Part shown: piece after piece, positions 7,707-43,809 of the stretch
How positions within the stretch are numbered: position 1 is the first letter of the stretch
Layout: every line of letters begins with the position of its first letter
Assembly: GCF_000802425.1 (NCBI RefSeq)
Contig: NZ_JRUD01000009.1
Coordinates: 36,788 to 100,787, forward strand
Reading direction: 5' to 3'
Origin: Pseudomonas flexibilis
GTDB lineage: Bacteria; Pseudomonadota; Gammaproteobacteria; Pseudomonadales; Pseudomonadaceae
DNA length: 64,000 nt
Program-made: the position numbers and the translations under genes
The notes under the pieces: generated by a model
What the model was told of the DNA's origin: nothing
Databases searched by the model: none
The model's input: only the letters and a program-made list of their open reading frames with translations

Positions 7707-7757
7707 GGCATTGGCGAAGCAGGAAAAAGGCCGGGCATTGTGCCAGAGCTCGGGGGC

Positions 7758-8444: not shown

Positions 8445-8446
8445 CC

Positions 8447-9274: not shown

Positions 9275-9304
9275 CGCCATGGCTTTCCCCCGGTCTAGTG
9301 AGCA

Positions 9305-10165
9305 CTAGAACAGACCCAGCTGCTCCTCCGCCGGTTCGTCGGCAATCGTCGGCAATTCCGGCAGGCCGGGCAGCCGCTGGCACAACCCGGCATGGAAACG
9401 CCGCGCCTGCTGCGGGGCCAGCAGGTTGTCCGGGGTATGCAGGAAGACATAGGGCTGGCGGCCCTCCTCGATCCAGCCCGCTACCTTGTCGAGCCAGGGC
9501 TCCAGATAGGGCTGGTTGGCATCCAGGTCCGGACCGCCAATGAAGCGGACCTGCGGATGGGTGGTGAACGCCGCCGGACGTACCGGCACGCGCGGTTTCT
9601 TGGCCTGGGCATGCAGTACGGCGGGATCGGACGAGGCGCAGGCGAACAGTGCCCGGGAATCAAGGCAGATGCGCTCCACGCCGCGTTCGTGCAGCAGCCT
9701 ATTGAGCTGGCGCTCCTCCTCCCCCTTGGCAAAGAAGGCGCGATGCCGCACCTCCACCGCCAGCGGACGCCCCTGCAGGGCGTCCAGCCAGTCGCCCAGC
9801 TCCGGCAAACGCTGCGGGCCGAAGGCGGCGGACAGTTGCAGCCATAACGGACTGAGCCGCTCGCCGAGCGGCTCCAACAGGTTCAGGAACTCGCGGGTGG
9901 CGCCCAGGCGCTCCCGCAGGTCGCCCTCGTGGCTGATGTCGCGCGGCAGCTTGGCACAGAAGCGGAAGCCCGCCGGCATGCGCTCGCTCCAGCGGCGTAC
10001 GGTGTCGGCGGATGGCCAGGCATAGAAGGTGGTGTTGCCTTCGACGGCGTTGAACACACGGCAGTAGTCGCCAAGAAACTCGGCCGGCCGCGTCGACGGC
10101 GCATACAGCGAGCCGCGCCAGCCCGCCTCGTTCCACGACGGGCAGCCTAGGTAGTAGGGCAGCAT
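9305..10165 (-). CDS. DUF72 (YecE-like) family protein
   Basis: Typical DUF72 sequence (YYLGCPSW...GNTTFYA...FLHTPD). Confidence 0.75.
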   Translation of the reverse strand: MLPYYLGCPSWNEAGWRGSLYAPSTRPAEFLGDYCRVFNAVEGNTTFYAWPSADTVRRWSERMPAGFRFCAKLPRDISHEGDLRERLGATREFLNLLEPLGERLSPLWLQLSAAFGPQRLPELGDWLDALQGRPLAVEVRHRAFFAKGEEERQLNRLLHERGVERICLDSRALFACASSDPAVLHAQAKKPRVPVRPAAFTTHPQVRFIGGPDLDANQPYLEPWLDKVAGWIEEGRQPYVFLHTPDNLLAPQQARRFHAGLCQRLPGLPELPTIADEPAEEQLGLF

Positions 10166-10213
10166 GGGGAGTCCCCGGACGGATTCGGGGCCGATTGTAG
10201 GCGACGCGGCGGG

Positions 10214-10510
10214 TCAGGCGTAAAGATCGATGTAGTGCCGTGCGGGCGGCTCGTCGAGCAGAGCGGCAATGCGGCTGTAGCTGGACAGCGCCTCCAGCAC
10301 CTGGGCGCCGGGCGCAGCGAGCGGCGACAGGGTACGCAGGGCGTTCGGCGTGCGGGCCATGCGCTCGAACTCGGCTTCGCTGGGCACCAGCGCCGTCGCC
10401 TCGATCAGCGCGGGCAGGCGATCCATGTCGTCTGCGTCGGCCGCATGCGTACGGCCGGGGCGCCGAGCACGCGAGTGTTGGGAGAGGGGTCGAAATCCGT
10501 CGATGCGCAT
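10214..10510 (-). CDS. Small hypothetical protein (98 aa)
   Basis: Has GAGG 9 nt upstream of the ATG and is co-directional with its neighbours. The composition is only moderately protein-like, and high GC can produce spurious ORFs. Confidence 0.35.
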   Translation of the reverse strand: MRIDGFRPLSQHSRARRPGRTHAADADDMDRLPALIEATALVPSEAEFERMARTPNALRTLSPLAAPGAQVLEALSSYSRIAALLDEPPARHYIDLYA

Positions 10511-10640
10511 GGCTGAACCTCACAGGTGTCGCCACTCTATGCAGCGCCCCACCTCGATGCAACGCGCAGCCCGTGACCTGCCGCGCATCCTGACGGCTGA
10601 GACCGGCGTCGCCGGCGCAGGTTCACCGATTCGTGCATTC

Positions 10641-11315
10641 CTAGGCTTTTGGCGTGGCGACCTGGTCACGCAGGTAGACGGGCTGCGCCGCGTCGGCCGC
10701 CACGGCCTCGCCGCGCGCCCAGGCGAACTCGGCCAGGCGTAGTAGATCCTCGGCATGCGGCAGCAGGCTGGCATCCATACCCAACGACGGCCGCACGGCC
10801 AGGCGATCGGCAAAGGCCCAGCCGGTGCCGGCGCCGAACCACTCGCCGGCGGCGCCACGCGGCAGGGCCACCTGTTCGGGCGGTAGCACGGCCTCGACAC
10901 CGGCCAGGCGCATCTCGCCCGCCTCCAGGCAGTAGCAACCCCAGTACACCTCGTCCATGCGCGCGTCGATGGCCGCTGCCACCTGTTCGACGCCACGTTC
11001 GCGATGGGCGCGCTGGGCCAGCACCGCCAGGTTGGAGACCGGCAGCACCGGACGCTGCAGCGCGAAGGCCAGGCCCTGCACCACGCCGATGGCGATGCGC
11101 ACCCCAGTGAACGCGCCCGGGCCGCGCCCGAAAGCGATGGCGTCCACCGCGGACAGCGCGATGCCAGCCTCGCCGAGCAGCTCCTGCACCATCGGCAGCA
11201 GACGCTGGGCATGCAGGCGCGGGATCACGTCGTAGCGACTGAGCAGGCGGCCCTCGTGCAGCAGGGCAACGGAGCAGGCTTCGGTGGCGGTATCCAGGGC
11301 CAGCAGGGTGGTCAT
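10641..11315 (-). CDS. tsaB: tRNA threonylcarbamoyladenosine biosynthesis protein TsaB (YeaZ)
   Basis: MTTLLALDTATEACSVAL N-terminus and Kae1/YgjD-like fold, 224 aa. The internal start was used; the ORF-track extension is non-protein-like. Confidence 0.88.
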   Translation of the reverse strand: MTTLLALDTATEACSVALLHEGRLLSRYDVIPRLHAQRLLPMVQELLGEAGIALSAVDAIAFGRGPGAFTGVRIAIGVVQGLAFALQRPVLPVSNLAVLAQRAHRERGVEQVAAAIDARMDEVYWGCYCLEAGEMRLAGVEAVLPPEQVALPRGAAGEWFGAGTGWAFADRLAVRPSLGMDASLLPHAEDLLRLAEFAWARGEAVAADAAQPVYLRDQVATPKA

Positions 11316-30991: not shown

Positions 30992-31531
30992 TCAGCGCTC
31001 GCCGGCCAGCCACTCCAGGGGAATCTCGTGCTGGCCACGCTCATCGGTGACGAACAGTTCGCCATCGCTGATCATCACGCTCCAGCTCAGCGAGCGCGGC
31101 AGGTCTTGGGCCAGATTCTCCAGCGCGGGCTGGTCGACCGCCACCACGCTGAGGTTCTTCAGGTTGCGCACGCTGTCGAGCACCCGGGTCTGCCAGACCC
31201 GCAGGCTGCCATAGGCCACCAGACTGAAGCGCTCGGCGCGGCGCGAGCACCAGGTCATGCGATCGGCATCCGGCTGACCCACCTCGATCCAGTGCAGCAC
31301 CCGGTCGTCCAGGCTCTTCTCCCAGAGCGCCGGCTCATCGACATCCGACAGGCCACGACCGAAGGCCAGCTGCGGGTCGTACCACAGGGCATAGGCGATC
31401 AGCCGCACCGCCAGGCGCTCCTCGGTTTCCGAGGGGTGGCGGGCGACGGTGAAACGCAGGTTCTCGTAGATCCCGCGATCCAGATCGGTGAGGTTGAGTT
31501 CGACTTTGTAGGGCGTGGCTTGCAGGGCCAT
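30992..31531 (-). CDS. yaeQ: YaeQ family protein
   Basis: The 179-aa product has the conserved YaeQ N-terminus (MALQATPYKVELNLTDLDRGIYENLRFTVARHPSETEERL). Confidence 0.85.
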   Translation of the reverse strand: MALQATPYKVELNLTDLDRGIYENLRFTVARHPSETEERLAVRLIAYALWYDPQLAFGRGLSDVDEPALWEKSLDDRVLHWIEVGQPDADRMTWCSRRAERFSLVAYGSLRVWQTRVLDSVRNLKNLSVVAVDQPALENLAQDLPRSLSWSVMISDGELFVTDERGQHEIPLEWLAGER

Positions 31532-31694
31532 GGAGGCAGTACCGGCTGGGAGCGAAAGGGCGCAAGTCTACCGCGAAAACTGTGGCCCGGCGCGGGCGAC
31601 AAGTAATGGCAAAATCACATCGTCGGGATGCCGAATCCCGGCGCAGGCGATTATAAGACCGCGCCCCGCTTCTTCCGGATCCGGAAAGGTTGTC

Positions 31695-32271
31695 ATGGAA
31701 ATCTTCTTCCTGCTATTCCTCGGCATCGTCGTGATGCTGCGCCCTGACCGGCAACGAACCCTCCGACGGGCGCCTGCAGATCGAGGGCAGTCCCGCACGG
31801 ACCACCCTGGACGAGGCCTCGCAGATCAACCGCGTTGCCACCCTGAGCATGCTGGATCCGACCCTCGGACGCCGCGAAGACGCGCTGCGCAAACTGGAAC
31901 AGGCGCGCGACCTGTTGCGCCACAGCACGGCGCAGGACGACCTGGACGACTTCGACAAGGCCCTGCTGCTGACGGCCATCGCCAACCGCTATCTGCAGCT
32001 GGACCGCCTGGACCTCGCCCAGGCCTGTCGCGCCGACATTCCAGAGGCGGAGGCCGGCTATGACGAGCATGAATGGATCGGCGCGCTGATCAGCCACGGG
32101 CATCTTGAGCAGGCCATCCACGACATGCGCTTCATCCATCTGCACGACACTACTCAGCCGCTGGCCCGCCTGCGCACGCGGATCGACGAGCTGGCCGAGC
32201 AGGGCCAGGCATTACGGGCACAACTGCTGGATCGGCTGCGCAGTGAGGCGTTCTGGGGTGCGCCCGCCTGA
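31695..32271 (+). pseudogene. Membrane-anchored hypothetical protein, apparently disrupted by a 1-nt frameshift at a CCC run (about 31742..31744)
   Basis: ATG at 31695 with a GGAAAGG RBS opens a TM-like N-terminus (MEIFFLLFLGIVVMLR). That frame then becomes junk (RPDRQRTLRR...). GC3-biased coding signal continues in the +1 frame (LTGNEPSDGRLQIEGSPARTTLDEASQINRVATLSMLDPTLGRRED...) to the stop at 32271. The intact +1 ORF from ATG 31849 (140 aa) has no RBS. Confidence 0.45.
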
Positions 32272-32292
32272 TGACGACGGCGGCACGCGGGT

Positions 32293-32979
32293 CTAGCGGC
32301 CCGCGTAGCGCTCCCAGAGGGTTTCGAATTCCCGGCTGTATTCGGCGAGCAGATGGGCGTCGTCGGTGACCAGCAGGTTTTCCTCGTTGCTGGTGGTGGC
32401 GCTGCGGGTCCAGTTGAAGCTGCCGTTGAGCAGCAGGCGTCGATCGAACAGCGCGAACTTGTGGTGCATGTGGTAGGGGCTGCTATCGATGCGCACCGGC
32501 ACGCCCCGCTCCAGCAGGTGTTCGATGTCGCTGCCCGGATCGAAGCGCTTTTCGCTGTCGCTGATCACCCGCACCCGCACACCCCGGCGGTGACAGTCGA
32601 TCAGCGCATCGCTGAGCAGGTTGTCGGAGATGGTGAACACACAGACGTCCACCGCCTCGCGTGCCTGCCGGCACAGTTCGCGGATCCGTGTCCGGCAACT
32701 TTCGCCCGGGCTGAAATGCGCGCTGCTGTGGCTGCGCGTCACGGCGCAGCGCACCTCCAGGGTGCGGATCACCTGCTCCAGCCATTTCAGCGCCGGCAGC
32801 GCCGCCTCCGGCTCCGCGACCTTCTCGCGCACCAGGGCGAAGGCGCGATTGCGCAGGAAACGCACCTGGTCGGGCGACAGGTTGTCGCCCAGTTCGCGCA
32901 GTTCGTTGCGCTCCTCGTTGCTCAGGCGCAGGTCCGCCAGGCTGTCCCGCAATTGCTGGTCGAGTTGCTCGAAGTTCAT
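32293..32979 (-). CDS. Phospholipase D-family protein with a single HKD motif (Nuc-like nuclease or lipid phosphodiesterase; 228 aa)
   Basis: HxK(x4)D(x6)GSxN signature (HMHHKFALFDRRLLLNGSFNWTRSA) after a helical N-terminal extension of about 90 aa. Starts 16 nt after the stop of the 1745-aa gene, with AAGGA upstream, consistent with translational coupling. Confidence 0.8.
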   Translation of the reverse strand: MNFEQLDQQLRDSLADLRLSNEERNELRELGDNLSPDQVRFLRNRAFALVREKVAEPEAALPALKWLEQVIRTLEVRCAVTRSHSSAHFSPGESCRTRIRELCRQAREAVDVCVFTISDNLLSDALIDCHRRGVRVRVISDSEKRFDPGSDIEHLLERGVPVRIDSSPYHMHHKFALFDRRLLLNGSFNWTRSATTSNEENLLVTDDAHLLAEYSREFETLWERYAGR

Positions 32980-32995
32980 GCCTCAACGTCCTTGA

Positions 32996-35900
32996 TCAGT
33001 CCTGCGTGACGCGCGGCTGGCCCAGCTGGCTGGCCAGCTCGCGCAACTGGCGCGCCATGTCGTGCATGTTGCGGTGGGTGCCCAGGTCGATATCGATCTT
33101 CTTGTCCATGGCATTGAGCAGTGGCAGAAAACCGTTCTGCAGGCTGTCGGCCAGGCGTTCCAGCAGGTGCTGGATACCCGGCTGCGGCGGCGCAACCACC
33201 TGCAGGTCGACCTCGACGCGCGGCTCGACCTGACGCAGACGCTCCAGACCAGCCAGCAGCTGCGCCCACGGCTGTTCGGCGTCCACCGGCGCAACGGCGC
33301 GCCGCTCACCCAGCGCGCGCACACCTTCCACCAGATCGTTGAGCTGGGCCACCACGCGGCCGCCGACATCCGCATCGCTGCCGCCGATGGCCTTGTTGCA
33401 CAGGAAATCGCGCTTGATCTGCGCCCAGCGCTCGGCCTGTTCGGCGCTCAGGGTGCCGCGCAGTTCGGCCAGCTTGAGCAGGTTCTCCTCGGCGCCGCTG
33501 GTCAGCAGTTGCGATTCGCCCTGGTAGTGGTCGGCGATCAGCTGCAGCAACTCGGCCTCGTTCATCACCGCGCTGATCTTCTCGGCCAGCTTGTTCATGT
33601 TGCGATAGCTGCCCTGCAGCTTGAACGGCGGCTCGGTGCGGTACTGCTCGGCCTGGGCGGCACTGGCGATGTACTGCTGGTTGACCTTGAGCACGGTATC
33701 GCGCACCTGCAGCAGCCGCTGCAGGGTAGCGGTGATCTCGTTGATCTCCGCGCCGCTGTAGTCATGGCTCAGCGTGTTGGCGGAGAACGGCTTGCCCTCG
33801 GCGCGCTCGACGAATCGATAGAGATCGGCCAGCTCGCGGGTGGCCAGCGGCGCCAGCACCGGGTTGGCGGTCAGGCTGTTCTCGATGTAGCTGAGAGCGA
33901 AGGCGTCCTGCATGCCGCCCAGGGTGTCGCCGAGGTTATAGATGTCGGCACGGTTGGCCAGCATGTCGGGGATCTTGAACAGCTCGCCGGACTCCGTGTA
34001 CGGGTTGCCGGCCATCACCACGCAGAACTTCTTGCCACGCATGTCGTAGGTGCGGGTCTTGCCCTTCCACACCCCCTCGATGCGCCGGGTGCCGTCGCAC
34101 AGGGAGATGAACTTCTGCAGGAACTCCGGGTGGGTGTGCTGGATGTCGTCGACATAGAGCATCACGTTGCTGCCCATCTCCAGCGCCAGGTTGAGCTTCT
34201 CCAGCTCCTGGCGCGAGGTGGCGTCCGGCGCCTGCGCCGGGTCGATGGAGCGCACCTCGTGACCCAGCGCCGGACCGTTGATCTTCATGAAGATCAGCCC
34301 GAGGCGGTGGGCGACGTACTCCATCAGCGTGGTCTTGCCGTAGCCCGGCGGCGAAATCAGCATCAGCAGGCCCATCAGGTCGCTGCGCTTGCCCTCCCCG
34401 ACCGTGCCCATCTGCTTGGCCAGGTTGTCGCCGATGAAGCCCAGGTACACCTCGTTGATCAGCCGGTTGCGCACGAACGAGGTCAGCGGCCGCGGGCGGA
34501 ACTCCTCCAGGCGCAGCGCCGCGCGTTCGCGTTCGAGCACCGCCTGGCGCAGCGCCTGGTAGCGCTGCAGCGCGGGCAGCACCTGGGTGCGGTGGTGGCG
34601 CAGGCGCTGGAAGAAGTCGTCCAGGCTCAGCTCCAGGACGCCCTCGCGGATGCGCGGGTGCTCGCCGAGCAGGCCGTCGACCCGAAAGCGCAGGTCGGCC
34701 TCGACGATGCGCGGCGCCAGCGTTTCCTCGGTCAGGCTCAGCGCCACCGCTTCGGGCACATAGTTGTGCAGTTCGGGCGCCTGACTGCGGCAATAGCCCT
34801 GCAGCCAGTTGGCGGCCAGCGCCCAGCGCTGCGCCGGCTGTTCTTGCAGCCCGTCCAGCGCCTGCCGGTAACCCTCCCACAGGTGGCTGGCCTGCAGGTG
34901 CCGGCGCAAGCCGTCGAGCAGCTCGCGGGCGTACTTGCTGCAGACGAACTCCACACGCTCGGCGGCCAGCTCCTCCACCAGGTACTCCGCCGCGTCCCGC
35001 AGCAGCGTGTCGGCCGGCTCGAGCGCATGCTGCGCCTGGAAACTGCGCATGGCCTGGCACACCTCGGCGCGCAGTTGCTCCACCCCGTTGGCATGGCCGA
35101 ACAGACGGCGCACCTGCGCACTGCTGGCCGCCCGTTGCGGCCAGAGCGCGGCGTGCGCCTCGCTGCGCCAGCACGACCAGAAGAACAGCGCGAAGCCACG
35201 CGCCGCCGGGCCATGGATCAGCAGCCCGGCGCTGTCGCGCAGTTCGAGCACGCGGAGCAGGATGGCCAGGGCGTCCTGGTCGTGGATGCCGCGCTGGTAG
35301 CCTTCCCGGTAGCGCGGCGCGGCGAACTCGCGGATCAGTCCGAGCAGTTCCTGGGGCTGACTCATGGCGGTCTTCAGCCGATCCAGGGACAGATCGCCAC
35401 CACCGTGCTCGGCGGCCTCCAGCAGCGCACCGGCCAGGTATTCGGCACGATACAGCTGCTCGGATTCGGATTCCAGCGACACCTGCCAGTAGTCGCGCAG
35501 GGCTTCCAGCTCGGGGGCGTGCAGCGGCTCGAGGAAATCGGTGCCGGTCAGGTGCAGGTGCAACTGGTCGCCCCGCGGCAGAAGGGTCAGGTCCAGTTCC
35601 TGGGTGTTGACGCTGAAGCGATGGCGCGGCCCCAGGCGGATGACGTTGCCGCCTTCCTCGAACAACTCGCGCTGGTCGCGCTGGGCGCGCACGGCCTGGT
35701 CGCGCACGCCCTTCAGGCGCGCCTCGATGTCGTCGGCACGCACGCTGTCGTCCAGCTCGCGCAACCGCCCGGCCAGTTCGCGCAGCTTGAGGATCAGTGG
35801 GTCGCCGGCGAAGAAGGCGTTGAGCTCTTCCGGGCGCGTGAAGCGCGCGGTGCGCCGGCCCAGGCCGTCGAGGATGCGGCGGGCGGCGTCGGCCAGCGAT

Positions 35901-38233
35901 TGCGCCTTGCGCTGGCGCTCGTCGAGCAGCGCCTGGCGATGGGCCTCGAAGGTTTCCAGCAACTCCTCGCGCTTGCCGAGGATGTCGCCGAGGAACTGCT
36001 CGTGGTCGCCGAACTGGCTTTCCAGCTCCTCCAGTTGCACCAGCAGCCGCGACAGCTGCTCGTCGCAGCGTTCCGGATCGGTGGCCAGCGCCAGGGCGCT
36101 GGTGACGCTCTGACCGAACAGCTTGAACTGGGCGCCGAACTGCGCCACCGCCTCGCTCGACCCCAGCCCCTTGCGGCGCTGTTCGGCGCGCGCCTTGGTC
36201 TGGTTGAGGCGGGCGTAGACCTCGGAAATGCCTTCGACGATGCGCGTGCGCTGGGTGGCGTCGTCGATCTTCAGCGAGGCCATCAGGCCGGAGAGCATGT
36301 CCAGGTCGGCGGCCATGCCGGCCATGTCCCGCAGCGGTTCGGCCAGCGCGGCCACGGTCTGCGCCGCCTGGGCGGCCTGGTCGAGCTGCTGCAGCCGGTC
36401 GAGGAACGGCTGCAGGGCCTGCGCCCCGGCCAAGAACGCCGAGGTGGCGGTGGCCACCCGCTCATGCGCCTCGAGCAGCGCACGCTCCATCGCGTCGATA
36501 CGCGCCACGTCGATGTAGCGCAGCTCGCGGATGGTCAGCAGCAGACCGCGCTGCGCGCCGATCTGGTTGAGCGCCTCGACGAACTCCTGCGCCTGCTTCC
36601 AGCCATCCATCCAGAGGCCGTCCAGCAGCGCCTTCTGGCGCGCTTCGGCATCGGCCATGGCGCGCGCCGACTGCTGGCGGATGCTTTCCACCTTCTCGAA
36701 TTCGTCCAGCACCAGCTCGCCGGTGGCGGCCACCTCGCGCAGCAGGGGCGCCAGCCCGGCGCATTCGGGTTCGCCGAGCCAGTGGTAGGCATCGAACAGC
36801 CGCCGGGTGTTCTGGCACAGCTGGCTGAAGCGGGCCACCGAGACTTCCGGGCTGTCGATCTCCCGGGCCAGGCCCAGCAGGTCGGAAATGCCGCGCACCA
36901 GCTCGGCGTTGCCGATGCGCCCGAAGAAACCGCCGCGGGCCGGCTGGCGGGCGGCGTACTCCTCGCTGTAGAACGGCGTCTGCCAGATCTGCATCGGGTG
37001 GATGCGGGTCGGCTCATCCCCTTCGGCGGAGAAGATCACCATGCGCCCGTCCTCCAGGCGCGCGTGACCGTGGCCGAAGATCGGGTTGTGCAGGCGGCGG
37101 CTGATCAGGTTGTAGGTCAGCAGCACCGAGCGGCCTTCAAGCGGTTCGTAGAACACGAACTGCACGTCCTCGCCGTTGGGCGAGCGCAGCATGCGCTTGA
37201 AGCGCATGCCGGCCATGGACTGCTCGAAGGTCTTGTATTCCCCGTTCTGCAGGTAGTAGCCACCGGGGAAGATGATGCCGTGGTCTTCCGGCAGCTGGAT
37301 GCAGGCCTGGCCGATGGCGTCGATGCGCTCGACCTTGCGGGTCAGGCTGTTGAACACCAGGTAGCGCCAGCGCTCCTCGCGGTAGGGCAGCACCTTGAGC
37401 AGGATCAGGCCGCCCAGCCGGGCATACTCGATCTGCGCGTCGTCCAGCGACTGGCTCTTGTCCAGCACCGGCTCGCGGTAGATGCCCTGGCCGTCCTCGG
37501 TGTTGTTCTCGACCTTGATGGTGAGATCGCCCCCCAGGGTTTCCACGAACACCGTGTCGAGGATGTTCAGGTGCGGGTGGCGGCCGTTGACCGCCATCTC
37601 GCGGGTGGTTTTCTGCCACTCGAAATCGAAGGACGCCGGCAGGGCGATGTCGCGCTCGCCACGGTTGTCGATGTAGCGCACCTGCTGGCCATCGGCGGAC
37701 ACGGACCAGCGGAACACGCGGATGTCGCTGACCCGCTCGCCGATCTGGAAGCTCGCCAGCAGCTTGCCGTCGCGCTGGGTGAGCTGCAGCAGCCGGGTGT
37801 TCTTGTAGTAGGTGTACAGCTCGGTGAAGTCGTTGACGAAGCTCTGCTGGCCCAGGAAGCTGCCGGCCAGTTCCAGTGCCTCGGCCTCGTAGCCCTGCTC
37901 ATGGGCCGCCAGGCGATACAGCGAGAACACGTCCTCGATGCGCGTCTCGCGCTTGAGGCCCAGGAAGACGTTGTAGCCGAACAGCAACAGATCGCCGACC
38001 TGGACGATGTCGCGCGCCACGCAGTTGTTCTCGGTGCGGATGCGCACCCGGCCGGCCACCTCCATGCGGCTGTCGCCGAACGCCTGCAGGCGTTGCTGGT
38101 TGAGGGTCTCGGCCTGCTGACGGACCTGGCGGCCCTGCTCCAGCAGACGTTTGTGCAGCACTTCATAGGCGCCGCCCTCGGCGACTGCCTTGTCCACCAG
38201 GTCCTGGGCCTGGGGAGCGGCCTGTTCCGACAT
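32996..38233 (-). CDS. Giant multidomain protein (1745 aa) with a C-terminal AAA+ ATPase module (MoxR/AAA_5-like); function unknown
   Basis: Beta-rich N-terminal region of about 500 aa, a central coiled-coil-like helical region rich in E/R/A/L, and a C-terminal ATPase with Walker A (SPPGYGKTTL), Walker B (MLYVDDIQ) and sensor-like motifs (VVMAGNPY..., RADIYNL). GC3 is high throughout. The long antisense ORF on the plus strand was rejected. Confidence 0.85.
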   Translation of the reverse strand: MSEQAAPQAQDLVDKAVAEGGAYEVLHKRLLEQGRQVRQQAETLNQQRLQAFGDSRMEVAGRVRIRTENNCVARDIVQVGDLLLFGYNVFLGLKRETRIEDVFSLYRLAAHEQGYEAEALELAGSFLGQQSFVNDFTELYTYYKNTRLLQLTQRDGKLLASFQIGERVSDIRVFRWSVSADGQQVRYIDNRGERDIALPASFDFEWQKTTREMAVNGRHPHLNILDTVFVETLGGDLTIKVENNTEDGQGIYREPVLDKSQSLDDAQIEYARLGGLILLKVLPYREERWRYLVFNSLTRKVERIDAIGQACIQLPEDHGIIFPGGYYLQNGEYKTFEQSMAGMRFKRMLRSPNGEDVQFVFYEPLEGRSVLLTYNLISRRLHNPIFGHGHARLEDGRMVIFSAEGDEPTRIHPMQIWQTPFYSEEYAARQPARGGFFGRIGNAELVRGISDLLGLAREIDSPEVSVARFSQLCQNTRRLFDAYHWLGEPECAGLAPLLREVAATGELVLDEFEKVESIRQQSARAMADAEARQKALLDGLWMDGWKQAQEFVEALNQIGAQRGLLLTIRELRYIDVARIDAMERALLEAHERVATATSAFLAGAQALQPFLDRLQQLDQAAQAAQTVAALAEPLRDMAGMAADLDMLSGLMASLKIDDATQRTRIVEGISEVYARLNQTKARAEQRRKGLGSSEAVAQFGAQFKLFGQSVTSALALATDPERCDEQLSRLLVQLEELESQFGDHEQFLGDILGKREELLETFEAHRQALLDERQRKAQSLADAARRILDGLGRRTARFTRPEELNAFFAGDPLILKLRELAGRLRELDDSVRADDIEARLKGVRDQAVRAQRDQRELFEEGGNVIRLGPRHRFSVNTQELDLTLLPRGDQLHLHLTGTDFLEPLHAPELEALRDYWQVSLESESEQLYRAEYLAGALLEAAEHGGGDLSLDRLKTAMSQPQELLGLIREFAAPRYREGYQRGIHDQDALAILLRVLELRDSAGLLIHGPAARGFALFFWSCWRSEAHAALWPQRAASSAQVRRLFGHANGVEQLRAEVCQAMRSFQAQHALEPADTLLRDAAEYLVEELAAERVEFVCSKYARELLDGLRRHLQASHLWEGYRQALDGLQEQPAQRWALAANWLQGYCRSQAPELHNYVPEAVALSLTEETLAPRIVEADLRFRVDGLLGEHPRIREGVLELSLDDFFQRLRHHRTQVLPALQRYQALRQAVLERERAALRLEEFRPRPLTSFVRNRLINEVYLGFIGDNLAKQMGTVGEGKRSDLMGLLMLISPPGYGKTTLMEYVAHRLGLIFMKINGPALGHEVRSIDPAQAPDATSRQELEKLNLALEMGSNVMLYVDDIQHTHPEFLQKFISLCDGTRRIEGVWKGKTRTYDMRGKKFCVVMAGNPYTESGELFKIPDMLANRADIYNLGDTLGGMQDAFALSYIENSLTANPVLAPLATRELADLYRFVERAEGKPFSANTLSHDYSGAEINEITATLQRLLQVRDTVLKVNQQYIASAAQAEQYRTEPPFKLQGSYRNMNKLAEKISAVMNEAELLQLIADHYQGESQLLTSGAEENLLKLAELRGTLSAEQAERWAQIKRDFLCNKAIGGSDADVGGRVVAQLNDLVEGVRALGERRAVAPVDAEQPWAQLLAGLERLRQVEPRVEVDLQVVAPPQPGIQHLLERLADSLQNGFLPLLNAMDKKIDIDLGTHRNMHDMARQLRELASQLGQPRVTQD

Positions 38234-38328
38234 CCTGCTCGTCCTGATCGAAAGTCCACGGGGCTACCGGGCCCGCGCACGGGCCCGGATCGACGGGAAA
38301 GGGACCGCGCCGCAGCGCGGTTCCGGCA

Positions 38329-40371
38329 TCAGCTCTCGGCGGCCGTCTGGGCGGCATCCAGGTCGCGACCGGCGCGGCCGTTGAGCAGGCGCGACAGCAT
38401 GTCCTGGACCACCGGGCTCTTGCCGACCACGCCTTCGATGGCCTTGCCCACCGACAGCGACTTGGCGAAGGAGTTGAAGAAGTCGCCCTCGCCGCCGACG
38501 ATCTCGATCTTCGCCTGGCCCAGCGCGGCGGCCAGCACCTCGGCCTGCTCCTTGGCGATGTCCTTGTTGGCGGCGATGGCGGCCAGGGACTCCTCGAAGT
38601 GCTTCTCCAGCTGCATGCGGAACTCTTCGTGCTGGCGCGCGTTGTCGCTGAGCGCATCCAGGGCGCCGAACTTCTTGCCCAGGCCCTCGGCCTCGGCGCT
38701 CAGCCGCTCCAGCAACACCTGCGCCTCGGCCAGACCCAGGTCCTGGGTCGCCTTGGCCTTGGCGCTGCCCAACTGCTGTTCGCCGCGCGCCTGGGCGCCG
38801 AGCTTCTCTTCCAGCACCTTGGCTTCGGCCAGGCCGTCCTTCTCCCGGGCGGCCGCCTGGGCTTCCAGCACACGGGCCTGTGCCAGGCCCTTCTCCTGCT
38901 CGCCGCGGGCTTCGGCGATCAGCTGTTCGGCCTTGACGCGGGCCTGCGCCAGTCCTTCCTTCTCGACCGCCGCGGCGGTGACTTCCAGCACCCGCGCATC
39001 GGCCAGGCCCGGCGCGGCGCGCTCGGCCTCGATGCCCTCGGCCATGCGCTTCTTGGCCTCGGCGCTCTTGGCCGCGGCTTCCAGTTCGGCCTGGGCCAGC
39101 GTATTGATCTCGACGGCCTTGTGGCGGGAGCGGGTCTCGTCGGCCTCGGCCTGCTTGACCTGGCGCACCAGCTCCTGTTCAGCCTCGGCCTGGGCCTGCA
39201 GCACGACGACCTGCTTGAGGCGCTCGGCCTCGGAGACCTCGCGCACTTCCTTGATGCGTTCTTCTTCCTGGGCCACGGTCTTCTCCACCGCCACCCGCTC
39301 GCGAATCACACCGGCGATGTTCTTGCGTTCTTCCTCCAGCGCCTTTTCCTTCTCGATGCGCTGCAGCTCCACTTCGCGCTCGCGGGCCACCACTTCCAGA
39401 TCACGGGCACGGGTGACCTTCTCCACCTCGATGACCACGGCGCGCTGACGGTTCTGCACCGCCACTTCCACCTCGCGCTGGTGGTTCTCGGCACGGATGT
39501 CCAGTTCCTGCTGGGTCTGGATGCGTGCCTGCTCGGCCTTCAGGCGCTCTTCCTCGCGCACCTTCAGGGTTTCAGCCTCCTCGCGGGCGCGGATGGTCTC
39601 GATCTCGCGCTTCTGGCGGGCCTCGGCATCGGCCTGCTGGCGCTCCAGGGCCAGGGTGGCCTCGCGGGTCTCGACGTTCTTCTTCTTGATCGCCAGCTCC
39701 TCGTTGCGCTCCAGCTCGTTGGTGATGACGTTCTGCGCGGCGGTCAGCTGGGTGATCTTGCGGATACCCTCGGCGTCCAGGATGTTGGTCGGGTCCAGGG
39801 AAACCTTGGGGGTCTGCTCCAGGTAGTCGATGGCCACGTCTTCCAGCACGTAGCCGTTGAGGTCGTTGCCGATCACCTCGACGATGCGGTCGCGGAAGCT
39901 CTGCCGCTCCTCGAACAGCTGGACGAAGTCGAACTGCTTGCCGACGGTCTTCAGCGCTTCGGAGAACTTGGCATTGAACAGCTCGTTGACCGCGCCACGG
40001 TCGGAGGCGCGGTCGACACCGATGGCCTTGGCCACCTTGAGCACGTCTTCCTGGGTTTCGTTGACGCGCAGGTAGAAGGCCACGGTGATGTCGGCGCGCA
40101 GGTTGTCACGGCAGATCAGGCCGTCCTTGCCGCGGCGATCGACTTCCAGGGTGATCAGGGAGATCTTCATGAACTCCTTGAGATAGATCACCGGGTACAC
40201 CAGCGCGCCGGTGAAATGCACCTTGGGCGTGGAGGACAGGTCGTTGACGATCAGCGCGGTGCCCTGTGGAACCTTGATGTAGAAGGCCTTGAACAGGACA
40301 TAGAAGCCCATCAGCAGCAGGAAGAACACGCCCACTCCGACCAGGAACGGCATCAGCATGGCGAAACTCAT
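38329..40371 (-). CDS. yqiK: Flotillin-family SPFH/band-7 protein (YqiK-like), 680 aa
   Basis: N-terminal TM helix, an SPFH domain, and a long E/A/R/K-rich repetitive coiled-coil C-terminus typical of bacterial flotillins. AAGGAG lies upstream of the ATG at 40371. Confidence 0.88.
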   Translation of the reverse strand: MSFAMLMPFLVGVGVFFLLLMGFYVLFKAFYIKVPQGTALIVNDLSSTPKVHFTGALVYPVIYLKEFMKISLITLEVDRRGKDGLICRDNLRADITVAFYLRVNETQEDVLKVAKAIGVDRASDRGAVNELFNAKFSEALKTVGKQFDFVQLFEERQSFRDRIVEVIGNDLNGYVLEDVAIDYLEQTPKVSLDPTNILDAEGIRKITQLTAAQNVITNELERNEELAIKKKNVETREATLALERQQADAEARQKREIETIRAREEAETLKVREEERLKAEQARIQTQQELDIRAENHQREVEVAVQNRQRAVVIEVEKVTRARDLEVVAREREVELQRIEKEKALEEERKNIAGVIRERVAVEKTVAQEEERIKEVREVSEAERLKQVVVLQAQAEAEQELVRQVKQAEADETRSRHKAVEINTLAQAELEAAAKSAEAKKRMAEGIEAERAAPGLADARVLEVTAAAVEKEGLAQARVKAEQLIAEARGEQEKGLAQARVLEAQAAAREKDGLAEAKVLEEKLGAQARGEQQLGSAKAKATQDLGLAEAQVLLERLSAEAEGLGKKFGALDALSDNARQHEEFRMQLEKHFEESLAAIAANKDIAKEQAEVLAAALGQAKIEIVGGEGDFFNSFAKSLSVGKAIEGVVGKSPVVQDMLSRLLNGRAGRDLDAAQTAAES

Positions 40372-40414
40372 GGGTAAACAATCTCCTTGTTTTTAAAGCG
40401 GGTGCGTGCGTCCT

Positions 40415-41044
40415 TCAGGACACTGACAGGCCGTCGAATTCGGCTTCGCTGATCACCCGATAGGCATGCGGCTCCGGCAGGTACTCCAGCAGTACCACCC
40501 GGTCGCCGCGCTTGAAGTCGTGGGTCGCCTCGGCACGGATGCGCAGGATCAGCCCGGCGCCGCCGTTTTCCAGCATGGCTTCCCCGTGCTGCTCGGTAAC
40601 CCGGCCGCTGCGCACCAGCACCCGCTGGCCGATCAGCGAGCGGCTATCCGTGGATTCCAGCTTGCGAAACAGCGGGCGCAGCGGACGGATCAGCAGGGCC
40701 ACCAGCGGTACGGCGGCCACCACCGCGGCCACGGCCGCGAGCAGACCCAGCGGGTAGCGCAGCAGGCCCAGCGGCAGAGGGTCGAGAATCAGCAGCTGAA
40801 CGAAATAGCAGCCCAACCAGGCGAAGAAGAACAGCAGGGTGAGCACCAGGGTGACCGGCACGCCGTTGAGCCCGCACTTGAGCAGCAGGCCGGCCAGCCC
40901 CTCCAGCGCCGTGTCATCGCCATCCAGCAGCTCGACATCGACCAGCCCGAGGGCGGCAACCAGCCAGTAAAGGATGGCCACGCAGAGCAGGAAGCTGAGC
41001 AGGACAGTCGGAAAGGAAAGCGAGGTATGCAGAAACAATTCCAT
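40415..41044 (-). CDS. yqiJ: YqiJ/NfeD-like inner-membrane protein (DUF1449; TM N-half plus C-terminal OB-fold-like domain)
   Basis: Multi-TM N-terminus and a soluble beta-rich C-terminus (GQRVLVRSGRV...GLILRIRAE...GDRVVLLEY). It sits immediately upstream of the flotillin gene, as in the E. coli yqiJK pair. Confidence 0.75.
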   Translation of the reverse strand: MELFLHTSLSFPTVLLSFLLCVAILYWLVAALGLVDVELLDGDDTALEGLAGLLLKCGLNGVPVTLVLTLLFFFAWLGCYFVQLLILDPLPLGLLRYPLGLLAAVAAVVAAVPLVALLIRPLRPLFRKLESTDSRSLIGQRVLVRSGRVTEQHGEAMLENGGAGLILRIRAEATHDFKRGDRVVLLEYLPEPHAYRVISEAEFDGLSVS

Positions 41045-41102
41045 CGGATCGCATCTCGAGGCGGCCCGAACGCCCAGGAAGAGCGCTCAGGCCTTTAGAC
41101 GG

Positions 41103-41798
41103 TCAGTCGGCCTGCCGGGCCTGCAGACGGGCCAGCACCTTTTCGGCATTGCTTTCGCTGCCGGCCAGGCCTGCCGCACGCAGCTTGCGATCCAGCGCCG
41201 CGTCGCCGTTACCTTCGGCGGCCAGCTCCGCAGAGGCGTCCATCAGTGCGGCACGCTCGGCCTGCTTCTGCTTGATGCGCTCCAGCGACTCCACGGCGGA
41301 GTGCAGGCGCGACTGGGCGTCGCCATGCCGCTGGGTGACCGCCAGCTGGGCTTTCTGCACGCTTTCGGTGGCCTTGACGGTATCCACCTGCTGCTTGAGT
41401 TGCTTGATGTTGCCCTCGGCCTGGGCGATGGCCGCGCGCAGACGCGTGGCGCTGGCGGCAAATTCCTCACCCTGCTGGCGCTCGCCCGCCAGATCGTTCT
41501 CCAGGCGCGCGATCTTCTCCGCCACTTCACGGGCCAGTTGCGCATTATCGGCGTCGAGCGCGTTGAGGGCGTATTGCTCGTACTCGCCGATCTGCTGTTG
41601 CAGCTTGCTGGTCCGCTCCTCGGCCAGTTTCTGCCTGGCCATGATGCCCGCCAGGGCTTCCCGGGACCTGTGCAGCTCCTGCTCGGCATCACGGATTTCC
41701 TGATCGAGGATCCGCAGGGCCTGGCCATCGACCAGCGACTCCCCCACCTCGCGGGCACCACCGCGCAGGGCGGTGAGCAGTTTGCTCCAGACGTTCAT
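41103..41798 (-). CDS. pspA: PspA/IM30-family protein (phage-shock protein A / Vipp1 homologue, ESCRT-III-like), 232 aa
   Basis: All-helical coiled-coil protein with the PspA-like N-terminus (MNVWSKLLTALRGGAREVGESLVDGQALRILDQEIRDAEQEL). AAGGAG lies 7 nt upstream of the ATG at 41798. The track ORF extension is junk-like. Confidence 0.88.
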   Translation of the reverse strand: MNVWSKLLTALRGGAREVGESLVDGQALRILDQEIRDAEQELHRSREALAGIMARQKLAEERTSKLQQQIGEYEQYALNALDADNAQLAREVAEKIARLENDLAGERQQGEEFAASATRLRAAIAQAEGNIKQLKQQVDTVKATESVQKAQLAVTQRHGDAQSRLHSAVESLERIKQKQAERAALMDASAELAAEGNGDAALDRKLRAAGLAGSESNAEKVLARLQARQAD

Positions 41799-42048
41799 TG
41801 CGCGCTCCTTGTTGAAAGGAAATCCTTGCAGGCCTCGGTGGTCCTTGCGGGCTTCCTTGATGAGCGGCCCCGTTCGCGCAAAGACTGGCGATAGAGGGGC
41901 CGCCAACGGGTGGAGAACATGCCTCCATGCGGCGCGCACGCTAACGGCTCGCAGGCGAGGCGCCAACCCTTACGAACGGCTGACGCCTGAAAACGTGATG
42001 CAGATCACGGTTGCGCAACGCGGACGCGTGGCGCGGAGCGGTTGGGTA

Positions 42049-42321
42049 TCAAGCGTAGTTGCGCACCCGGTCGCTGCCGCGCAACGCGGCGAGCACGGTT
42101 TCGTCGGCACTGCCACCGGCGACCAGCAGGTCGCGGCGCACGCTGTCCAGCACTTCGGCCAGGCCGGCGGGGTGGCTGAGCAGCGCACGGCCAACCACCC
42201 GGCTGATCAGCGGCTCGCCCTTCTCGTCATGCAGGGTGATGACCCGACCGCCATCGGGCCGGCGCGGCCCCAGGGTGACGTTGTAGGAAGCCAGCGCGGC
42301 CAGCAGTGCATTCATGTCCAT
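42049..42321 (-). CDS. Small hypothetical protein (about 90 aa) immediately upstream of the pspA-like gene
   Basis: Protein-like composition, co-directional with the cluster. Start ambiguous between ATG 42321 and ATG 42315; the RBS is weak. Confidence 0.5.
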   Translation of the reverse strand: MDMNALLAALASYNVTLGPRRPDGGRVITLHDEKGEPLISRVVGRALLSHPAGLAEVLDSVRRDLLVAGGSADETVLAALRGSDRVRNYA

Positions 42322-42328
42322 CCGATAC

Positions 42329-42359
42329 AGCCCCGGTAACCGATTGAAAAACCGGGGCT
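42329..42359 (-). other. 9-bp inverted repeat (AGCCCCGGT ... ACCGGGGCT) between the nadA stop and the small gene start
   Basis: Seen directly. The loop is 13 nt with a leading TTTTT. It is a possible nadA terminator or attenuator, but the structure is ambiguous. Confidence 0.3.
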
Positions 42360-42387
42360 TTGAGGCCGGCAAAGGCGGAAAGTTCCG

Positions 42388-43446
42388 TCAGGCGTTGCCA
42401 GCCAGGCGCAGGCGCGCGGCCTGGGTGAAATCCAGCATGCGCTTGAGCGGCTTGACGGCGCGCGGCACCAGTGCCGAGTCCACGAGGATCTCGTTGCTGC
42501 CCTCGCGCAGGGTATGCAGAGTCCGCTCCAGGGTGTTCATGGCCATCCACGGGCAGTGTGCGCAGCTGCGACAGGTGGCACCGCTGCCGGCGGTGGGCGC
42601 CTCGATGAACTCCTTGTCCGGGCAGAGCTGCTGCATCTTGTAGAAGATGCCGCGGTCGGTGGCGACGATGAAGGTCGGATTGGGCAGGGTCTGCGCCGCC
42701 TTGATCAACTGGCTGGTGGAGCCTACCGCGTCGGCCAGCTCGATGACCGCTTCGGGGGATTCCGGGTGCACCAGCACAGCCGCTTCGGGGTACAGGACCT
42801 TCATGTCGGCCAGTTGCTTGGCCTTGAACTCCTCGTGAACGATGCAGGCGCCATCCCACAGCAGCATGTCCGCGCCGGTTTCACGCTGGATGTAGCGACC
42901 CAGGTGCTGGTCGGGTGCCCAGATCAGCTTCTCGCCGTTGTCCATCAGGCTCTCGACGATCTCCAGCGCGCAGCTGGAGGTCACCACCCAGTCGGCACGC
43001 GCCTTGACCGCTGCCGAGGTGTTGGCATACACCACCACGGTGCGCTCGGGATGCTGGTCGCAGAAGGCGGCGAATTCCTCCACCGGACAACCGAGGTCGA
43101 GGGAACAGGTGGCCTCGAGGGTGGGCATCAGCACGTGCTTTTCCGGATTGAGGATCTTGGCGGTCTCACCCATGAACTTCACCCCGGCCACCAGCAGGGT
43201 GCTGGCCGGGTGCTGACTGCCGAAGCGGGCCATCTCCAGGGAATCGGCGACGCAACCACCGGTTTCCTCGGCCAGTGCCTGCAGCACGGGATCGCAGTAG
43301 TAGTGGGCAACCAGCACGGCATCCTGCTTCTTCAGCTCGGCGGCGATTTCAGCGCGAAGGCTGGCCTCCTGCTCGGGCGTCAGCGGCTTGGGCTGCTTGG
43401 CGGCGAGGTGGGCTTGGACCAGGATGCGCTCGGGGATCTGAGACAT
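42388..43446 (-). CDS. nadA: Quinolinate synthase A
   Basis: The 352-aa product has three Cys ligands of the Fe-S cluster in conserved context and a typical NadA N-terminus (VAHYY). The internal ATG at 43446 was used. Confidence 0.93.
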
Positions 43447-43540
43447 GACGGCAGGACCTGCAAACTCGACTGAAGCGGAAGGCGAGTATACACCCGACCC
43501 AGCCACCGGCGGCTGCCTGCGGCATGGCGAGCGCATACGA

Positions 43541-43580
43541 AAAAGCCGGAAATCAATCTTTCAACTGATTTCCGGCTTCT
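43541..43580 (-). terminator. Rho-independent terminator of tRNA-Lys (12-bp perfect stem AGCCGGAAATCA/TGATTTCCGGCT plus U-run)
   Basis: Seen directly. It lies 13 nt downstream of the tRNA 3' end on the minus strand and is followed by TTTTT. Confidence 0.75.
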
Positions 43581-43592
43581 ACTCGTTTCAAC

Positions 43593-43668
<76 letters not shown>

Positions 43669-43679
43669 GATGGCTGTGC

Positions 43680-43707
43680 ATCATACTGATTTAATTCAGG
43701 AAATCAA
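43680..43707 (-). promoter_or_regulatory. Candidate sigma-70 promoter for tRNA-Lys (TTGATT-N16-TATGAT)
   Basis: On the minus strand the -10 hexamer ends about 11 nt before the mature tRNA 5' end. It lies in an AT-rich intergenic region. Confidence 0.45.
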
Positions 43708-43809
43708 CGGTTTTTTTATGCTGACCGAAAAAAAACGGTGAATGGCTTACCTGCGTTTCCTTTGACCGGCCTCAACAGGCGCACCCAGGCGAATTTCTAA
43801 GATGCGCCG

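Follow-up and report, generated by a model that had tools for sequence, protein, structure and literature searches.

A stretch of 64,000 nucleotides (nt) from Pseudomonas flexibilis (contig NZ_JRUD01000009.1, 36,788-100,787 of the forward strand; in the following called the window, within which all positions are numbered) carries a cluster of five minus-strand genes. In order of transcription, these encode a PspA-like protein (41103..41798, 231 amino acids (aa)), a YqiJ/NfeD-like membrane protein (40415..41044, 209 aa), a flotillin/YqiK-type protein of the SPFH group (38329..40371, 680 aa), a giant soluble AAA+ protein (32996..38233, 1745 aa) and a phospholipase D (PLD) with a single HKD motif (32293..32979, 228 aa). 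All five open reading frames (ORFs) lie exactly where the initial annotation of this DNA had placed them, and their strand and the gaps of 58, 43, 95 and 16 nt from pspA to the PLD gene are likewise reproduced. Judged from sequence, the cluster is the P. flexibilis orthologue of bacB-bacF (PA3731 to about PA3727) of Pseudomonas aeruginosa, its genes corresponding to bacB, bacC, bacD (encoding PaFlo3), bacE and bacF, respectively; the assignment of the giant ATPase as BacE and of the PLD as BacF counterpart is based on synteny. Existence, co-transcription and comparative genomics of this operon have already been published, and our finding is a confirmation rather than a discovery. What is added here is a hierarchy of linkage among the genes, an invariant DD form of the Walker B motif in the ATPase, the likeness of the PLD to mitochondrial MitoPLD, rhomboid and TelA genes as accessories and the loss of bacA.

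In P. aeruginosa, PA3729-PA3732 were named the biofilm-associated cluster (bac), in which the PspA-like PA3731 is induced by osmotic shock and required for biofilm formation, swarming, rhamnolipid production and virulence (Mace 2008, PMC2587700). Using reverse transcription PCR (RT-PCR) over all junctions, PA14_16140-16200 (bacABCDEF) were found to constitute one six-gene operon with a proposed sigma-54 site 5' of bacA; the structure of BacA, a DUF2170/YjfI protein with a CesT-like fold, was solved in the same study, and the other Bac proteins were reported to build up in a bacA mutant (Wallart 2024, PMC10948618). The synteny with PA3728-PA3732, which the initial annotation had given together with the name 'biofilm-associated cluster', is confirmed by both papers as well as by the gene order itself. 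From a comparative perspective, operons combining CesT/Tir-PspA with band-7/flotillin, YqiJ and a novel AAA+ protein, and in some Proteobacteria also an HKD-type PLD, were described by Ravi et al. (mSystems 2024, PMC11237479), who reported shorter flotillin-YqiJ(-ATPase) operons to be more widespread and already drew the analogy to ESCRT-III and Vps4. Reading the locus as a membrane-remodelling or membrane-repair module, as was done initially, matches their account and is sound, but not novel. Additionally, PA3728-PA3732 were up-regulated in all phage-infected samples of one study (PMC12041424), PA14_16190 is among the genes under strongest RsmA regulation (PMC8855297), and PA3728 is one of the genes found repeatedly mutated in isolates from cystic fibrosis (PMC8190622).

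A consensus scan for terminators over 31500-43800 gave four weak sites compared to 6.4 expected by chance, all four of them intragenic, and no terminator-like site in any of the four intergenic gaps, in line with the earlier statement that no terminator separates the genes. The GC content is high throughout the window (approximately 64-70%), with a composition that is unbroken at the cluster. Co-transcription, initially proposed as likely, remains likely in view of the short, terminator-free gaps and of the RT-PCR data on the orthologous PA14 operon. According to hydropathy analysis, flotillin and YqiJ-like protein are membrane-anchored, while ATPase, PLD and PspA display no hydrophobic segment.

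The gene identities, too, hold up in Pfam searches, BLASTP, scans of protein fragments and profile comparisons. The first gene of the P. flexibilis operon encodes a protein identical to WP_039560626.1 that matches PspA_IM30 (PF04012) over its full length with an E value of 4e-54. The longest ORF begins with a TTG at 41966, but a start at the ATG at 41798 yields a protein that aligns with the Pfam model from its position 1, and AAGGAG precedes this codon at a distance of 8 nt. For flotillin and YqiJ-like protein, no Pfam or NCBIfam match of the whole proteins was obtained even at an E value of 10. However, in BLASTP the flotillin is 29% identical to Escherichia coli YqiK over 455 aa (E 4e-37), and its residues 1-220, when scanned alone, match Band_7 with an E value of 4e-7. 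Its layout comprises an N-terminal anchor (the only hydrophobic segment, aa 1-35), the Band_7 domain and a long tail that is rich in E, A, R and K and resembles a coiled coil. On account of YqiK similarity, N-terminal Band_7 domain and single N-terminal hydrophobic segment, the 680-aa protein is classified by sequence as a YqiK-type flotillin. The YqiJ-like protein shows no similarity to E. coli YqiJ in pairwise BLASTP, whereas a 20-sequence profile built around it finds E. coli YqiJ with an hhalign probability of 89% (E 2e-6) and an hmmsearch E value of 5e-9. Hydropathy spans are predicted at aa 3-41, 53-90 and 90-126, followed by a soluble, beta-rich C-terminal domain, and an orthologue from Planctomycetota is matched by Pfam YqiJ_N. 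The name 'YqiJ-like' is justified at the level of profile comparison.

The giant protein is matched by DUF3686 (E 6e-208, aa 37-484), DUF7902 (E 2e-28, aa 605-688) and, at aa 1290-1417, AAA_5 (E 6e-6) and AAA (E 1.5e-5), the AAA_5 match being weak with 26.7 bits at a cut-off of 22; a VWA domain was not detected in any of the cluster proteins in the general Pfam scan. It shares 75% identity with the P. aeruginosa protein and belongs to a large family with more than 6,300 matching proteins in a 90%-clustered collection. A search with its N-terminal 700 aa yielded 930 representatives at 50% clustering, and most among the matches listed measure 1,600-1,900 aa. At NCBI, the family is named 'DNA repair ATPase', and the Pfam text for DUF3686 reads 'ATPase involved in DNA repair'; no paper supporting this name was found, and a literature search on 'DUF3686' gave none. 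A deviating family member of 1,040 aa, comprising DUF3686 and DUF7902 without an AAA+ module, is encoded at 8001-11123 of locus L086, where it is solitary in an 8.9-Mb genome; its gene neighbours encode Por-secretion-tail proteins, and YqiJ_N, PspA and CesT are absent from the precomputed Pfam matches of these neighbours.

Structural models of the ATPase were generated with AF2 (AlphaFold2) from shallow alignments of 11 close homologues. The model of aa 1-700 (pLDDT 72.6) predicts a long helix near the N-terminus (aa 22-52), a region composed entirely of beta structure (aa 63-411) and helical bundles (aa 443-699). In Foldseek, the beta region retrieves propellers of WD40, prolyl-oligopeptidase and IFT-A type with E values around 1e-5 but TM scores of only 0.1-0.2, in view of which neither a specific propeller family nor a kinship to coat proteins is claimed. 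For aa 1101-1640, only a poor model was obtained (pLDDT 61.3), and its fold matches (RuvB, Rubisco activase, NorQ/CbbQ, Lon and spastin alike) are those of a generic AAA+ fold. Overall, the predicted architecture consists of a helix, a propeller-like region (aa ~63-411), a helical region (aa ~443-700, with DUF7902 inside it), an unassigned central part, one AAA+ module (aa ~1280-1440) and a variable tail, and as far as the models reach it agrees with the one described by Ravi et al. (2024).

The AAA+ core (33914..34396, minus strand) displays SPPGYGKTT as Walker A, LYVDDIQH as Walker B, MAGNPYTE as sensor-1-like motif and a candidate arginine within IPDMLANRAD. In 21 sequences down to 27% identity, which span different phyla, the motifs SPPGYGKTT, Y[LVI]DDIQH, EFLQKFIS, MAGNPYTE and IPDMLANRAD are very strongly conserved, with Walker B always reading DD and never DE. 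Between the two Walker motifs, this alignment shows no evident aromatic pore-loop motif. The DDIQ form of Walker B is also that of DnaA, a switch-type AAA+ protein. Based on the DD Walker B and the missing aromatic pore-loop motif, we infer that an ATP-dependent switch or assembly factor is favored over a threading motor of the Vps4 type. Furthermore, Pfam revealed no MIT domain in the protein, whose N-terminus is modelled as a helix followed by the propeller, and comparison of the AAA+ profile with the PDB brought up p97, Rix7 and similar proteins through the Walker A stretch alone, no solved structure being related in sequence outside it.

The PLD, identical to WP_039560620.1, matches PLDc_2 with an E value of 1e-30 and contains one intact HKD motif (HMHHKFALFD...NGSFNWT), preceded by a helical N-terminal extension of approximately 90 aa. 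Its closest solved relatives belong to MitoPLD/Zucchini, the 'mitochondrial cardiolipin hydrolase' (9lkx_K, E 3e-30 over aa 90-225; 4ggj_A, E 1e-26), compared to which the matches to bacterial Nuc (3e-11) and NucT (1e-7) are far weaker. Two activities have been assigned to MitoPLD, the conversion of cardiolipin to phosphatidic acid and that of an RNA nuclease. In NCBIfam and PADLOC searches, the PLD gave only weak, sub-threshold matches to NucT, DrmC and DpdK and a weak domain-level match to Mko, while PADLOC returned nothing but coiled-coil noise for PspA and only IetA, at 0.008 over 29 residues, for the ATPase. The PLD start codon lies 16 nt past the ATPase stop codon in the window, compared to an overlap of 4 nt between the two genes in L082, the corresponding locus of a 96% relative from a metagenome; this spacing suggests coupled translation and physical partnership of PLD and ATPase. 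Both the likeness of the PLD to MitoPLD/Zucchini and the loss of bacA in P. flexibilis described below seem to be new.

In order to assess the conservation of the cluster, 80 species genomes carrying an ATPase homologue of 55-78% identity were surveyed by mapping the partner genes with tblastn. Distant loci (27-34% identity) were reached via a representative search and a second protein search, and four of them were looked up. YqiJ, flotillin and ATPase genes follow each other in one order and on one strand in all loci of the 80-locus set with enough flank, bar one. The BacA-PspA dyad, by comparison, is present in 48 of the 80 loci and missing from about 20, including those of Stenotrophomonas, Xanthomonas, Xenorhabdus, Pragia and Longimicrobium, and at least 18 adequately flanked loci contain YqiJ-flotillin-ATPase without a neighbouring PspA gene. 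The reverse case, an ATPase gene paired with PspA in the absence of flotillin, was encountered neither among the 80 loci nor in the four distant look-ups. A PLD gene occurs in about 34 of the 80 loci (31 of 47 PspA-containing versus 2 of 18 PspA-less ones, counts that are not phylogenetically independent), with its position shifted to about 2 kb 3' of the ATPase gene in four Lysobacter loci.

The same arrangement extends to distant lineages, with CesT_Tir-PspA-YqiJ-like-flotillin-SMC-like-ATPase in Flavobacterium litorale, PspA-PspA-YqiJ_N-flotillin-ATPase in a metagenome-assembled genome (MAG) of Planctomycetota and YqiJ-like-flotillin-ATPase-TelA in another distant MAG (L084). Orthology of the partners was confirmed in these three lineages, two of which can be assigned to other phyla. 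The recurrence of this order in 80 genomes as well as in three distant lineages goes far beyond what chance would produce, and phylogenetic linkage of the ATPase to the pspA/flotillin genes, on which the initial annotation had staked its proposal, does exist. Flotillin and YqiJ are linked most closely to the ATPase, PspA less so and the PLD least; since the YqiJ-flotillin-ATPase core is near-invariant and PspA optional, the ATPase is tied first to flotillin and not to PspA. Whether the ATPase/PLD pair always accompanies pspA, yqiJ and flotillin genes, as had been asked at the outset, can be affirmed, with one exception among the sufficiently flanked loci, for the ATPase with YqiJ and flotillin, but neither for PspA nor for the PLD.

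Several accessory genes recur within these loci. A Rhomboid-domain gene (Pfam E 4e-16) lies between ATPase and PLD genes in 30 of the 80 loci and is absent from the window; the one at 15220-15798 of L001 encodes 192 aa, among which GxSG-like and His motifs are present. A TelA gene (toxic-anion resistance, E 6e-72) and an unannotated gene for 256 aa are found between ATPase and PLD with overlapping junctions in L032 (15274-17138), the one examined of the four Lysobacter loci with a shifted PLD gene, while in L084 (13010-15019) TelA and an unannotated 257-aa gene, in reversed order, are situated directly 3' of the ATPase gene. TelA looks like a recurrent accessory of the YqiJ-flotillin-ATPase system. 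The SMC-like protein of F. litorale (L083, 6228-7988) is a 586-aa coiled-coil protein encoded between flotillin and ATPase, its SMC_N match being sub-threshold with 27 bits at a cut-off of 40. In L048 (Lampropedia, 7611-9944) and L060 (Pseudomonadota MAG, 7637-9941), 2.5-3.4 kb of unrelated genes separate flotillin and ATPase, with the insert of L048 judged by eye to comprise an NYN-like gene and a nucleotidyltransferase/HEPN pair. The flotillin-ATPase junction hence tolerates insertions.

Upstream of pspA, P. flexibilis differs from its relatives. No tblastn match to BacA (DUF2170/YjfI, CesT/Tir-like) was found in the whole window at an E value of 1e-3, whereas 49 of the 80 related loci possess one. 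Directly 5' of the pspA ribosome-binding site, approximately 35 nt (41814..41848, minus strand) align with the final bacA codons (…KATEAYEDFL…) of L001, L009, L013 and L022, with a marginal tblastn E value of 0.026 at this position. The metagenomic relative L082 (nadA-DUF3509-PspA-YqiJ-like-flotillin-ATPase-PLD) likewise lacks bacA, its remnant carrying an extra 9-nt deletion and a 28-nt insertion just 5' of it. PspA without BacA occurs in none of the 80 surveyed loci, but in the window and in L082. As a 3' relic remains while the rest of the gene is absent, bacA has been deleted in the P. flexibilis lineage, making it a natural bacA null. In P. paraeruginosa (L012), an in-frame extension of 59 codons precedes the bacA start at 5710-5886 (MERKSSAHYQRVFRQRLREQGL…), which could represent a mis-called start or a separate small ORF.

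With bacA deleted and other genes flanking the cluster, any promoter must differ from the one proposed 5' of bacA in P. aeruginosa. A candidate sigma-54 -24/-12 element (TGGCGC-N5-CTGC, two mismatches) is located at 41951..41965 on the minus strand, about 150 nt 5' of the pspA ATG. Enrichment of equally good matches is absent from the window (56 versus 92 expected), and the presence of the element in L082 is uninformative, as identity over the entire region amounts to 91%. In ten relatives, no site 5' of bacA was retrieved with a strict sigma-54 regular expression.

Further upstream lies the small ORF (42049..42321, minus strand, 90 aa) which had been described as immediately adjoining in the same orientation. 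It is indeed present and on the same strand, but it encodes a DUF3509 protein (E 3e-17), is separated from pspA by 250 nt and is not bacA; beyond it lies nadA. Two small hairpins follow the DUF3509 stop codon within this gap, the second one succeeded by UUUU, with a z-score of -1.4 that is not significant. Of the 80 loci, just two yielded a DUF3509 homologue, about 2 kb 5' of the operon, with an opposite-strand gene intervening in L012. In view of the 250-nt gap, the weak hairpins and its rarity near the operon, the ORF was rejected as a stand-in first gene and is probably a neighbour outside the operon. At the other end, a convergent plus-strand gene (31695-32271) is located 3' of the PLD gene. 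Its counterpart in L082 encodes 569 aa without a Pfam match, of which only residues 1-62 and 414-569 are matched in the window, indicating an internal deletion of about 350 codons that may have broken the frame.

Taken together, the cluster is probably best explained as an envelope- or membrane-stress operon of the PspA family in which an ATPase switch docked to a scaffold is combined with a lipid-acting PLD, an explanation we hold with moderate confidence as a whole. It builds on identity, order, conservation and membrane topology of the genes as described above, from which docking, switch function and lipid substrate are what we infer. Membrane-anchored flotillin and NfeD-like YqiJ would form an oligomeric SPFH scaffold at the cytoplasmic face of the inner membrane, onto which the soluble giant ATPase would dock via its beta-propeller and helical regions. 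Binding and, given the DD Walker B, slow hydrolysis of ATP might then act as a switch that controls assembly or remodelling of the flotillin scaffold and of any PspA polymer present. The MitoPLD-like PLD, presumably translationally coupled, would be recruited to the same patch and most plausibly act on an anionic phospholipid, with conversion of cardiolipin to phosphatidic acid as model reaction, whereby the curvature of the patch and the binding of PspA would change. PspA-BacA, PLD, rhomboid and TelA could accordingly be regarded as interchangeable accessories around the YqiJ-flotillin-ATPase core. Partnerships between SPFH cages and AAA+ proteins are known from HflK/C-FtsH, prohibitin-m-AAA and SLP2-PARL-YME1L.

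A number of points weigh against this explanation. Contact of the ATPase with flotillin or PspA is deduced from gene linkage alone, its models are modest or poor in pLDDT with fold matches of low TM score, and its AAA+ clade is left open because the profile match covers Walker A only and the fold hits are generic. The next-best matches of the PLD are nucleases (Nuc, NucT, DrmC, DpdK), and since it is disputed whether MitoPLD/Zucchini acts as lipase or nuclease, the similarity leaves the PLD substrate unsettled. Co-transcription and stress induction are transferred by analogy from P. aeruginosa data rather than taken from P. flexibilis, and the sigma-54-like site, a candidate at best, lacks statistical support as promoter. 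In PA14, a mutant in paFlo3 (PA14_16180), the flotillin gene, formed only about 20% less biofilm (PMC13086221), and our literature search yielded no functional, biochemical or genetic study of ATPase or PLD from any organism.

Three other explanations have to be weighed against the scaffold-docked switch. As already suggested in the initial annotation, the giant AAA+ protein could be a bacterial analogue of Vps4 whose main task is to disassemble or recycle PspA polymers by substrate threading. The pairing of ESCRT-III with Vps4 is established knowledge, Ravi et al. arrived at the same analogy, and a PspA gene does share the operon with a dedicated AAA+ gene, both here and in 48 of the 80 loci as well as in those from Flavobacterium and Planctomycetota. 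Yet the constant partner of the ATPase is flotillin-YqiJ, as at least 18 loci retain the triad without PspA and none of those surveyed or looked up pairs ATPase and PspA without flotillin. The hallmarks of Vps4 are missing as well: the protein has neither an MIT domain nor any Vps4-type match, its resemblance to classical AAA proteins is limited to the Walker A stretch, its Walker B is invariantly DD and no aromatic pore-loop motif is evident. Of the initial analogy, the gene pairing is therefore retained, while threading in the manner of Vps4 is considered unlikely. The DD Walker B and the absent pore loops argue equally against a processive unfoldase, as would be needed if the ATPase were a quality-control motor for membrane proteins in flotillin microdomains which, in the manner of HflK/C-FtsH or SLP2-PARL-YME1L, extracts clients or hands them over, with rhomboid as partner where present. 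Such hubs of SPFH protein, AAA+ protein and protease are well established, the flotillin-YqiJ-ATPase triad is nearly invariant across the surveyed loci, and a rhomboid gene sits between ATPase and PLD genes in 30 of 80. Nevertheless, the ATPase itself has no protease domain, and neither rhomboid nor any other protease gene is present in the window and in many other loci, so that little probability is given to this variant.

Similarly improbable appears an ATPase-PLD module directed at nucleic acids, either by pairing a DNA repair ATPase with a nuclease of the Nuc type or as an anti-phage system of the abortive-infection or restriction type, which would merely share its operon with membrane sensors. 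Such a function is implied by the NCBI name 'DNA repair ATPase' and the Pfam description of DUF3686, names behind which no paper was found. Further hints are the weak PLD matches to NucT, DrmC, DpdK and Mko and the established RNA nuclease activity of Zucchini; for the ATPase, however, PADLOC gave no meaningful match (IetA, 0.008 over 29 residues), and with the PLD missing from about half of the loci, the ATPase is independent of it. Induction of the operon by phage infection (PMC12041424) fits a Psp-type response to membrane damage as well. Ordinary GC content and a synteny with membrane-protein genes that is strictly kept across phyla are those of a conserved chromosomal locus, unlike a variable defence island; on the same grounds, and for lack of a PADLOC signature match, a defence-island reading was rejected.

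For the assembly and dismantling of PspA polymers, which resemble ESCRT-III, and of flotillin scaffolds, and as a source of energy for these processes, this operon encodes a conserved candidate ATPase. As the ATPase tracks flotillin-YqiJ and is accompanied by a MitoPLD-like PLD, flotillin dynamics and cardiolipin turnover come first for study. A far-reaching version of the scaffold-docked switch, which we regard as distinctly doubtful, would have ATPase and MitoPLD-like PLD form an ATP-gated lipid-remodelling machine on flotillin/NfeD scaffolds, in which the PLD converts cardiolipin to phosphatidic acid at damaged patches, enabling PspA to seal or fuse them. This would make the system a bacterial counterpart of mitochondrial membrane quality control with SPFH scaffold, AAA+ protein, rhomboid and MitoPLD, and P. 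flexibilis a natural bacA null running without its chaperone/repressor. The MitoPLD-like score of a bacterial PLD may also bear on the bacterial origin of MitoPLD.

Compared to known systems, the cluster proteins, apart from the weak hits listed above, match no signature protein of a defence model in PADLOC. Regarding MoxR/AAA_5 ATPases, the giant protein gave the weak AAA_5 match, and NorQ and CbbQ were among many generic fold matches to a low-confidence model. The ESCRT-III/Vps4 system is resembled in that a gene of PspA, a member of the ESCRT-III superfamily, stands beside a dedicated AAA+ gene, but the window ATPase lacks an MIT domain, its only AAA+ module is divergent and reads DD in Walker B, a scaffold of propeller and helices takes up 1,280 residues, and its linkage to flotillin is closer than that to PspA. 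In common with the HflK/C-FtsH and SLP2-PARL-YME1L (SPY) hubs, the gene of an SPFH scaffold is linked to that of an AAA+ protein and, in numerous related loci, also to a rhomboid gene, whereas the ATPase carries neither protease domain nor membrane anchor and is akin to the AAA+ proteins of those hubs by the generic fold only. The PLD resembles MitoPLD/Zucchini (PLD6) as a single-HKD enzyme with strong similarity over the entire catalytic domain (E 3e-30), yet in place of an N-terminal transmembrane anchor it features the helical extension of about 90 aa. As in E. coli yqiJ-yqiK and Bacillus subtilis yuaF-floT, the gene of an NfeD-like membrane protein directly precedes that of the flotillin, while the K-12 annotation shows no adjoining gene for PspA, giant ATPase or PLD, and E. 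coli YqiK measures 553 aa compared to 680 aa for the flotillin of the window. Closest of all is the bac operon itself (bacABCDEF, PA3732 to about PA3727), with the same gene order and strand, short gaps and identities to the P. paraeruginosa proteins (L012) of 69% for PspA, 65% for YqiJ-like protein, 88% for flotillin, 75% for ATPase and 70% for PLD. It differs by bacA, the gene of a proposed chaperone and negative regulator of which P. flexibilis has kept only some 35 nt of the 3' end, and by the flanks, formed by nadA and the DUF3509 gene in P. flexibilis. Finally, of the operon class defined by Ravi et al. (2024, PMC11237479), the window contains PspA, flotillin, the YqiJ/YuaF-type protein with three transmembrane segments and the AAA+ protein with its propeller-like region, but not the CesT/Tir member that defines the dyad; to this class, the present survey adds rhomboid and TelA as recurrent accessories and a PLD that is MitoPLD-like.

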